Source of the DNA: Escherichia phage Chlobot
DNA: 46,491 nucleotides
Sequence record: PP925838.1
Strand: one strand, 5' to 3'
Position numbers and translations under genes: made by a program. The notes under the pieces are model-generated. The model worked only from the letters and a program-made list of their open reading frames with translations, made no database searches and was not told the origin of the DNA. This document shows positions 46,003 to 46,491 of this stretch, one piece after another (the stretch's first letter is position 1; each line of letters begins with the position of its first letter).

Positions 46003-46491
46003 TTAATAGCCATCAGAAGTAATCGCTACAGATTTCAATCCCTCAATGTCATCCTTGGACAGGGCGAACCATTCACCGTGCTTTCTCTTTGCGGCAAATT
46101 TGCGATGAAGCATGTTTTCAGTTTCTCTTCCACCAGGGATCAGGCACTCAAGCTTCAAGCAGTCTGGTCCAGAGTTGCCAAGCGATTTGATGCGTTGTGG
46201 AATGTTGGATGAATACCCAATTTTGGTTAACCCAGTTTTCTTCGATGACAAAACGTATACCTGAGGAGGTTCTTTTCTCTGGTCTTCCATTACACGTCTC
46301 ATTGTTGCCATAAGTCCGCCGTGCATCAGCATTTCAACAAAGAACGCTGACCGAACACCTGACGACTTAAGCATGCCAGAAAATTCACTTGCCAATTCCA
46401 TTAACTCTGCGATGTTTTCAGGAACTTTTTGGCAGTTATCTTCCTTGTATAAGGAAATCATTCTTTGAAGCTTTTCTTCTAATTGGTTCAT
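46003..46491 (-). CDS. GIY-YIG-like T5orf172/MUG113-domain protein (162 aa)
   Basis: C-terminal region QVYVLSSKKTGLTKIGYSSNIPQRIKSLGNSGPDCLKLECLIPGGRETENMLHRKFAAKRKHGEWFAL resembles the T5orf172 GIY-YIG-type domain; ATG is the last codon position of the window, so upstream context wraps to window start if the genome is circular. Confidence 0.55.
   Translation of the reverse strand: MNQLEEKLQRMISLYKEDNCQKVPENIAELMELASEFSGMLKSSGVRSAFFVEMLMHGGLMATMRRVMEDQRKEPPQVYVLSSKKTGLTKIGYSSNIPQRIKSLGNSGPDCLKLECLIPGGRETENMLHRKFAAKRKHGEWFALSKDDIEGLKSVAITSDGY

Follow-up and report, generated by a model that had tools for sequence, protein, structure and literature searches.

The genome of Escherichia phage Chlobot (sequence record PP925838.1), which was analyzed over its full length of 46,491 bp and is referred to here as the window, carries at its end a gene for a protein of 162 amino acids (aa) with a C-terminal domain of the T5orf172/GIY-YIG type. 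This gene, in the following the GIY gene, and the RNA leader in front of it are the subject of this analysis. The window is a lambda-like genome read in reverse, with Nu1 and A at 43853 and below and with R and Rz at the window start. The record is permuted, and its end coincides exactly with the ATG of the GIY gene. After both ends were joined, the order on the late strand was Rz, an intrinsic terminator, a leader of about 154 nt and the complete open reading frame (ORF; Table 1). Since phage HK106 and about 80 E. coli prophages from complete chromosomes carry Rz, the terminator and the GIY gene without interruption, the junction was considered real and the ORF was considered not to be truncated at the window edge. 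The preliminary description of this DNA had placed the gene on the late-gene strand and, provided that the window is circular, just after Rz and its terminator, and had named truncation at the edge as a possible objection; the position was confirmed, the gene being co-oriented with Rz and the late operon, and the ORF was found intact. The terminator was present as described, but the scan located it at 175 to 155 on the minus strand and not at 149–173. Its stem comprises nine pairs, six of them G-C, and is followed by TTTTT; it is annotated as rho-independent in HK106 and epsilon34, and nearly every cassette examined has a terminator ahead of its leader. Rz was identified by means of a RefSeq lysis protein encoded in the colinear prophage of E. 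coli B27 (locus L003, 5209–5667), which corresponds to window positions 206–664. This stretch is 84–94% identical to Rz of HK106, HK97, HK022, P22 and epsilon34.

The start codon of the GIY gene is conserved, as homologues with 74–87% identity begin with M-N-x-[LF]-E-E-K. An in-frame extension upstream of this ATG exists in the window and is not conserved. Since an in-frame TAA and 1-nt insertions or deletions break the frame in the leader of the epsilon34 type, the leader was regarded as non-coding. Gene calls of 174 aa (with GTG as start codon; P0003) and of 224 aa (P0001) were therefore rejected as read-through of the non-coding leader.

The leader is predicted to fold into two hairpins, and the minimum free energy (MFE) of the 161-nt leader of the window was -50.5 kcal/mol. 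A small GC hairpin (h1) is followed by a long imperfect hairpin of about 95 nt (about 105 nt for the element as modeled below), which lies between the Rz terminator and the ATG. In the basal helix of the long hairpin, the 5' arm CCUUU (window 101..97) pairs with the Shine-Dalgarno sequence AAAGG (window 15..11). When 13 divergent leaders were folded singly, the same architecture was obtained, i.e., a small GC hairpin and then a hairpin of about 95 nt with a (G)CCUUU:AAAGG basal helix. Their energies ranged from -34 to -54 kcal/mol for a 132-nt segment and from -41.5 to -58.7 kcal/mol for the full leaders, with z-scores of -1.4 to -4.4. A hairpin equivalent to h1 was present in all leaders examined, including those of genes for KilA-N, Rha, Ant and HNH-AP2 proteins. 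The leader DNA (about 150 nt) is 71–86% identical between cassettes whose proteins share just 33–83%, and this homology ends at the ATG.

A covariance model (CM), R1, was built from the leaders of eight GIY genes only and was used to search a set of 337 kb. R1 matched window positions 1–106 on the minus strand with 119.6 bits. In addition, it found the leaders of the KilA-N genes of HK97, HK022 and PhiR49_1, of P22 rha, of the Rha and Ant genes of POCJ13, and of an HNH-AP2 gene between Q and the holin gene. These matches beyond the GIY leaders had E-values of 1e-5 to 1e-9, and each ended exactly at a start codon. No match was obtained in lambda, in a Bor-type slot or in the rest of the window. 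In the leader alignment fitted to the model, 92.6% of the cells were paired, as compared to 41–53% when the 3' partners were slid. Compensatory changes were found in 27 of the 34 pairs (5–11 with slid partners), and the observed covariation was attained by none of 500 shuffles. A second, largely independent sample of leaders was fetched via KilA-N and HNH-AP2 proteins; a hairpin ending at the ATG was present in 83 of these 84 loci, and pairing in the second alignment, likewise fitted to the model, was 90.2%, as compared to 36–43% in the slid controls. The number of compensatory cells was 130 in the first alignment and 266 in the second. Since the folds of single sequences are independent of the model and the element keeps its register to the start codon, the signal is not regarded as an artefact of model fitting. 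RNAalifold on a plain MAFFT alignment yielded a slightly different outer helix and a weak covariation term, and the structure-guided alignment was needed. On comparative grounds, the leader hairpin is a conserved, covarying RNA structure predicted to sequester the Shine-Dalgarno sequence.

A hairpin acting at the level of DNA, like attC, was disfavored, as the element is locked in register to the Shine-Dalgarno sequence and the ATG and as the sense strand is more stable. In two lineages, the sense strand folded with -36 and -40 kcal/mol and the antisense strand with -24.5 and -21.4 kcal/mol. The difference is due to G-U pairs and thus points to RNA. A search of Rfam returned nothing relevant on the contiguous leader at E-values up to 5 and nothing for the homologous regions of five other phages. 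Unpaired nucleotides in the internal loops are conserved, which suggests that a dedicated trans-acting factor or an RNase recognizes them. The RNA leader is absent from the preliminary description, and the RNA architecture is the part of this locus considered worth following up.

Two small non-coding RNAs (sncRNAs) without known function were described in P22, namely P22F (89 nt, with its 3' end 6 nt ahead of the rha start; validated by reverse transcription PCR) and P22G (204 nt; downstream of ORF201) (PMC13397905, 2026). P22F (locus L008, 2175..2087) falls inside the CM match of P22 (2187..2079), and P22G corresponds to the 3' flank discussed below. Both RNAs flank the cargo gene of P22 as their counterparts do in the window. 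Since P22F and P22G match the elements on either side of the window cargo, both elements accumulate as discrete RNAs in P22. They were reported for P22 only and as individual small RNAs; the structure, the family, the pairing with the Shine-Dalgarno sequence and the link to cargo are not part of that report (PMC13397905), and the copies of the window are known from their sequence. In the P22 genome (NC_002371.2; L008, 2079–2187, minus strand), the ATG at which the leader hairpin ends lies 69 nt downstream of the rha (orf201) start given by RefSeq. This ATG is probably the true rha start, yielding a product of 178 aa, as the authors of the sncRNA study assumed (PMC13397905).

Table 1. Features of the GIY gene cassette and its flanks in the window.
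Feature	Position	Strand	Basis or remark
Rz-like spanin gene	206..664	-	Conserved left flank of the cargo slot
Intrinsic terminator after Rz, GAGCCUCGCGAUGCGGGGCUU plus U-run	155..175	-	Terminator scan
Small GC hairpin h1 (GCGC, 7-nt loop, GCGC)	119..133	-	MFE fold; between terminator and long hairpin
Long imperfect leader hairpin, P22F-like	10..102	-	MFE fold, CM, covariation
GIY gene (ORF, 162 aa, intact)	46003..46491	-	ATG at 46491..46489, the final three bases of the window
N-terminal domain, residues 1–71, three-helix bundle without assignable family	46279..46491	-	AF2 model
C-terminal T5orf172/MUG113 (GIY-YIG superfamily) domain, residues 72–162 and stop codon	46003..46278	-	Pfam
Stem-loop AAGCCCA...UGGGCUU	45941..45962	-	Read from sequence; about 40 nt past the stop codon, start of the shared right flank
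Conserved non-coding right-flank block, about 283 bp, unannotated	45687..45969	-	Sequence comparison, fold

The C-terminal half of the 162-aa protein was recognized by the Pfam models MUG113 (PF13455; residues 90–151, E = 6e-15, 56 bits with a cut-off of 22.3) and T5orf172 (PF10544; residues 78–150, E = 2.8e-10, 41 bits with a cut-off of 20), in agreement with the family to which this half had been assigned before. The AlphaFold (AF2) model was confident, with a predicted local distance difference test (pLDDT) score of 91.5, and showed three N-terminal helices (residues 3–20, 23–43 and 50–71; pLDDT 89–95) and then a beta-beta-alpha-beta-alpha unit. As modeled, the C-terminal half adopts the alpha/beta fold of GIY-YIG enzymes. 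The search of the Protein Data Bank (PDB) with a sequence profile gave no match, and hhalign of the protein against the verified I-TevI sequence gave a probability of 0.3%, which is not significant. Since these profile links to solved GIY-YIG enzymes fail, membership in the superfamily is based on the Pfam branch models and the fold. NCBIfam gave no match for the protein. In PADLOC, a weak match to PDC-S57 was obtained (E = 7e-6, 23.8 bits, 74 residues of the nuclease domain), and no match to a defence system beyond this shared domain. PHROGs assigned the full-length protein to phrog_4284, a family of unknown function.

The N-terminal part had been described as about 70 helical residues of no assigned family, and this held: its three helices were modeled with a pLDDT generally above 90, and the 71 residues matched nothing in Pfam, NCBIfam or PADLOC. 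A structure search with the full model gave matches restricted to generic helical bundles. In an exhaustive phmmer search, 11,204 representatives were found for the C-terminal domain, and the N-terminal region was common to only a handful of phage proteins of about 160 aa. The ratio of non-synonymous to synonymous substitution rates (dN/dS) was 0.06–0.17 for the N-terminal and 0.02–0.10 for the C-terminal domain. Thus, both halves are under purifying selection and functional.

Among 28 relatives with identities down to 25%, the residues Y79, K90, I91, G92, R100, E125, H129, G139, E140, W141 and F142 were invariant. Judged by topology and helix order and not by residue-level superposition, Y79 would be the Tyr of the GIY motif, R100 the catalytic Arg and E125 the Glu that binds the metal (E75 in I-TevI, E180 in Odn). 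The T5orf172 protein Odn (Gp88) of phage ICP1 has been shown to be an active nuclease that is directed by sequence and depends on one Glu (PMC8263062), and T5orf172 genes act as homing endonuclease genes at the boundaries of genetic exchange (PMC10448857). The window protein shares with these proteins the T5orf172 domain with conserved Arg and Glu, the phage origin and the setting of mobile-element conflicts and recombination boundaries (PMC8263062, PMC10448857). In contrast to it, the ICP1 proteins have a DNA-binding domain (RepA_N or CapR/Zn-finger) and are encoded by lytic phages; the window protein has the 71-residue bundle only, comes from the late operon of a temperate lambdoid phage, and its activity is predicted. 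Taken by itself, the gene is ordinary. The protein is already listed in RefSeq as a GIY-YIG nuclease family protein (WP_016245257.1), and this entry and HK106 gp64 (YP_007151734.1) are 99.4–100% identical to the window protein, with 99.4% for gp64. HK106 gp64 occupies the same position after Rz and the terminator, has the same leader and differs in nothing material; it is the same gene, with a family-level annotation and no reported function. As a member of a very large nuclease family, the GIY gene by itself adds little.

The interval after Rz is a slot with interchangeable cargo. It holds a KilA-N gene in HK97, HK022 and PhiR49_1, and an Rha gene in P22 and POCJ13; in lambda and PhiR26_1, it holds Bor on the opposite strand. 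The preliminary description had likewise placed the GIY gene where lambda has bor, and lambda bor indeed follows Rz immediately, occupying the interval between Rz and the DUF1398 gene with cos. The slot is bracketed by conserved arms, namely Rz with the terminator and the leader on one side and the P22G-like block on the other, which explains the cassette-like exchange of cargo. HNH_3+AP2 genes of 163–170 aa, resembling homing endonuclease genes, lie between Q and the holin gene in prophages of Salmonella and E. coli (L020, 1416–2029; L044, 439–1052; L055, 406–998). Since these genes carry the same leader hairpin, some prophages hold two units of leader plus cargo.

The GIY gene was present in 82 of 5426 complete E. 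coli genomes, with an identity of at least 99% in 81 of them, and at about 100 loci in IMG/VR. Orthologues with 76–87% identity occupy the same post-lysis slot in prophages of Salmonella and Klebsiella. The Klebsiella variicola orthologue (76% identity; L018, 5001–6187) overlaps by 4 nt with a downstream gene for a 232-aa Endonuclease_NS protein (PF01223) in the post-Rz slot, and the pair may encode either two nucleases that form a module or a nuclease and its regulator. A deeply divergent allele with 33% aa identity fills the slot in the P22-like Salmonella phages epsilon34 (gp68) and g341c (gp64); the two-domain architecture, the slot and the leader (86% identical DNA) are shared, but a different packaging module follows. 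More distant members were found elsewhere, between the lambda-type tail tube and chaperone genes (P0013) and among other tail genes (P0016). A member with 51% identity (L023, 3802–4538; L024) is inserted at the junction of the lambda-type genes V (major tail protein) and G (chaperone) and has its own terminator and leader hairpin. DNA homology between the V-G copy and the post-lysis copy (L009) is confined to the ORF. A subfamily with 25–32% identity (P0080 and P0164; L013, 4210–5321, and L016, 5001–5923) is translationally coupled to a Bro-N gene; P0080 follows Q, and P0164 lies in the early-left operon next to KilR, RecE and RecT. The regions upstream of P0080 and P0164 gave no match to the leader model. 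At every insertion point examined, the gene had the orientation of the operon around it. All combinations of leader types and protein alleles were found; as read from these comparisons, the cassette is mobile and leader types recombine with alleles.

On the 3' side of the gene, the stem-loop that opens the shared right flank is common to HK022, HK97, HK106 and PhiR49_1, which differ in their cargo. The right-flank block was found in 205 phage records with 80–99% identity, and in all cases it lay between the variable post-Rz gene on its 5' side and the packaging module, of whatever type, on its 3' side. Its fold on the late strand had a z-score of -5.05, and its positions 45916..45760 share 92.5% identity with P22G as published (PMC13397905). 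Rfam gave no match for the block at E-values up to 1. An ORF of 24 codons (ATGGAAAGACAT...) lies inside it. The block was also considered as a remnant of an rha gene and rejected as such, since it sits downstream of intact rha genes. POCJ13 and phages of the Stx type have the segment 45557–45687 in common with the window. Most of the block is missing from PhiR49_1, and in some E. coli prophages it contains insertions. Relative to the window, the prophage of E. coli EM18-18-42 (L004, 3266–3597) has two insertions in the 3' flank, of about 60 bp just past the post-gene stem-loop and of about 105 bp further into the conserved block. The second insertion brings the Shine-Dalgarno sequence and the ATG of a new small ORF; the first is shared by HK106.

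The 514-bp region between the GIY gene and the DUF1398 gene had been described as GC-richer than its surroundings and as a possibly decayed or recombined junction with a single 54-aa ORF. Its GC content of 0.43–0.52 exceeds that of the adjacent DUF1398 gene (0.28–0.36), but not that of the GIY gene (0.43–0.47), so that the contrast applies to one side only. The 54-aa ORF (45534–45698, plus strand) exists and has no family match. Corresponding DNA occurs in PhiR49_1 (98% identity; annotated there as hypothetical) and in POCJ13 (about 90% identity). The neighborhood as a recombination joint was supported. The notion of decay was not, as the gap is a mosaic of conserved blocks including the segment homologous to P22G.

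These observations are tentatively read as a late-operon cargo cassette that encodes a translation-throttled and probably active nuclease, an interpretation that is plausible but falls slightly short of being probable. This cassette comprises, in this order on the late strand, the intrinsic terminator, the small hairpin, the Shine-Dalgarno-sequestering hairpin of about 95 nt and the ORF. Antitermination by Q in lambda is the basis for proposing that transcription occurs only through Q-modified RNA polymerase that passes the Rz terminator late in lytic growth. With the ribosome-binding site (RBS) enclosed in the leader hairpin, translation would be low or gated, and the hairpin is probably also excised as a stable small RNA, by analogy to P22F in P22. 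The C-terminal domain would keep the residues expected of an active nuclease, and the N-terminal bundle may supply oligomerization or recognition of a partner or target and would not be a classical DNA-binding module. The nuclease would most likely cut DNA in late lytic growth, with competing lambdoid genomes, satellites and host DNA as candidate targets; alternatively, cutting may stimulate recombination in the conserved flanks and thus promote a homing-like spread of the cassette.

A similar logic is known from phage T4, where homing endonuclease genes are limited by intrinsic terminators and RBS-sequestering hairpins (PMC2988022). The window cassette combines a terminator and an RBS hairpin in the same way as I-TevI, segB and mobE of T4. 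In T4, however, a late promoter inside the hairpin relieves repression, and none is evident in the leader of the window. Furthermore, the window hairpin belongs to a conserved family of about 95 nt that is much more widely shared, including by non-nuclease genes, and the window protein is without the linker and DNA-binding domain of the T4 enzymes.

Several observations weigh against the proposal of a throttled, active nuclease. The canonical GIY-YIG model PF01541 remained below its threshold (E = 0.19, 12.5 bits with a cut-off of 22.6). The second motif reads KIG instead of YIG, the second Tyr being replaced by Lys, and the cluster representative P0002 carries E140G. No helix-turn-helix, Zn-finger, NUMOD, CapR or RepA_N domain was found in the N-terminal 71 residues by Pfam, in the AF2 model or in the structure search. 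Characterized T5orf172 and GIY-YIG homing enzymes possess a DNA-binding domain. The gene was always single-copy, never with two copies per genome, though many E. coli hold several slots with the same flanks. As non-nuclease genes use the same leader and slot, cassettes can be exchanged without the GIY nuclease. Finally, the scan for promoters across the contiguous junction found none between the terminator and the ATG, but it covered the sigma-70 consensus only, and weak or non-consensus promoters may be present. By eye, TTGAGC-N15-TATGGT and TTCACA-N16-TATTAC were seen; both are poor and are not conserved between leader types. Confidence in the proposal is limited because no DNA-binding domain was found, the second motif is KIG, the gene is single-copy throughout and non-nuclease genes use the same platform.

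Lambda bor is expressed in lysogens, and a bor-like, protective role had been implied by the preliminary description. Accordingly, the gene could be a defence or conversion moron expressed from the prophage like bor, sieB or rex, i.e., a constitutive nuclease that attacks superinfecting DNA or triggers abortive infection. The nuclease domain, the position in the bor slot, the PADLOC match at the domain level and the sporadic occurrence in E. coli are in line with such a gene, but the strand and register are those of the late operon, and an own promoter, the hallmark of a moron, is not apparent: no sigma-70 consensus promoter precedes the ATG, a terminator lies upstream and the Shine-Dalgarno sequence is sequestered. 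Moreover, relatives among the tail genes or after Q are always co-oriented with late or early operons. Lambda bor itself differs in lying on the opposite strand, in encoding a lipoprotein and in having no leader hairpin, and the same lack of a leader applies to other bor-bearing slots. A role like that of bor therefore fits poorly and is considered quite unlikely. It is also unlikely, though less so, that the protein is a non-catalytic DNA-binding regulator or resembles an anti-repressor, with a T5orf172 domain that binds and does not cut. Such a function would match the slot-mates KilA-N, Rha and Ant, whose genes use the same leader and slot, the coupling of one subfamily to a Bro-N gene and the Lys in place of the YIG Tyr; domesticated relatives of homing endonucleases can act as repressors, e.g., CapR (PMC8096241). 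CapR, however, keeps the DNA-binding domain and not the T5orf172 domain, the family shows no variation at the Arg, Glu and His positions that would be expected in a GIY-YIG active site, and since an HNH-AP2 nuclease gene has the leader too, the cargo is not restricted to regulators.

A strict free-standing homing endonuclease would cut the cognate slot that lacks the gene and would be copied in by repair via the Rz/terminator and P22G-block flanks. The pattern of such genes is seen here, with sporadic presence between highly conserved flanks and several unrelated insertion points, including the V-G junction of the lambda-type tail cluster, and the regulation is styled like that of homing endonuclease genes; in other phages, T5orf172 homing endonuclease genes mark recombination boundaries (PMC10448857). 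Against strict homing stand the lack of an extended DNA-recognition domain, the single copy even in polylysogens that offer other slots, the exchange of non-nuclease cargo in the same slot and the restriction of homology between tail-context and post-lysis copies to the ORF. This explanation, too, is regarded as improbable.

Beyond the throttled-nuclease cassette itself, the P22F-like hairpin of about 105 nt may represent a previously undescribed, widespread class of cis-regulatory RNA in lambdoid phages. The hairpin, the terminator upstream of it and, for cargo in the post-lysis slot, also the P22G-like 3' block would then constitute a plug-and-play platform by which the translation of interchangeable DNA-targeting cargo is gated; this is put forward as a possibility that is less than probable. 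The cargo of this platform may comprise the T5orf172 nuclease, the HNH-AP2 nuclease, KilA-N, Rha and Ant. If so, the window nuclease would be one of the payloads in a system that serves late-stage conflict between phages. A strongly covarying, RBS-hiding hairpin that is absent from Rfam fronts a set of exchangeable accessory genes in the best-studied group of temperate phages. Candidate roles follow for the two P22 small RNAs: P22F would belong to an RBS-sequestering leader, and P22G would be the conserved flank on the 3' side of the slot. Start codons of accessory genes can be located with the RNA model irrespective of the cargo. It also offers a handle on how mosaic joints after the lysis cassette are kept up and how potentially toxic nuclease or anti-repressor genes are restrained.

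Two further observations concern the surroundings. Between cos and the slot, the window carries genes for a YlcI/DUF3950 protein (77 aa) and a DUF1398/YbcV-like protein (141 aa) on the plus strand (44787–45488), as in DLP12 and lambda. The label 'head protein' given by PHROGs to the DUF1398 family appears doubtful for a gene on the anti-late strand. In HK106 (L001, 3431–3501, minus strand), beside the annotated PR' promoter, Rfam gave a weak match to isrJ, an Hfq-binding RNA of Gifsy-1, below the gathering threshold (28 bits, E = 0.21), and this match is probably the region of the PR'-proximal short transcript.

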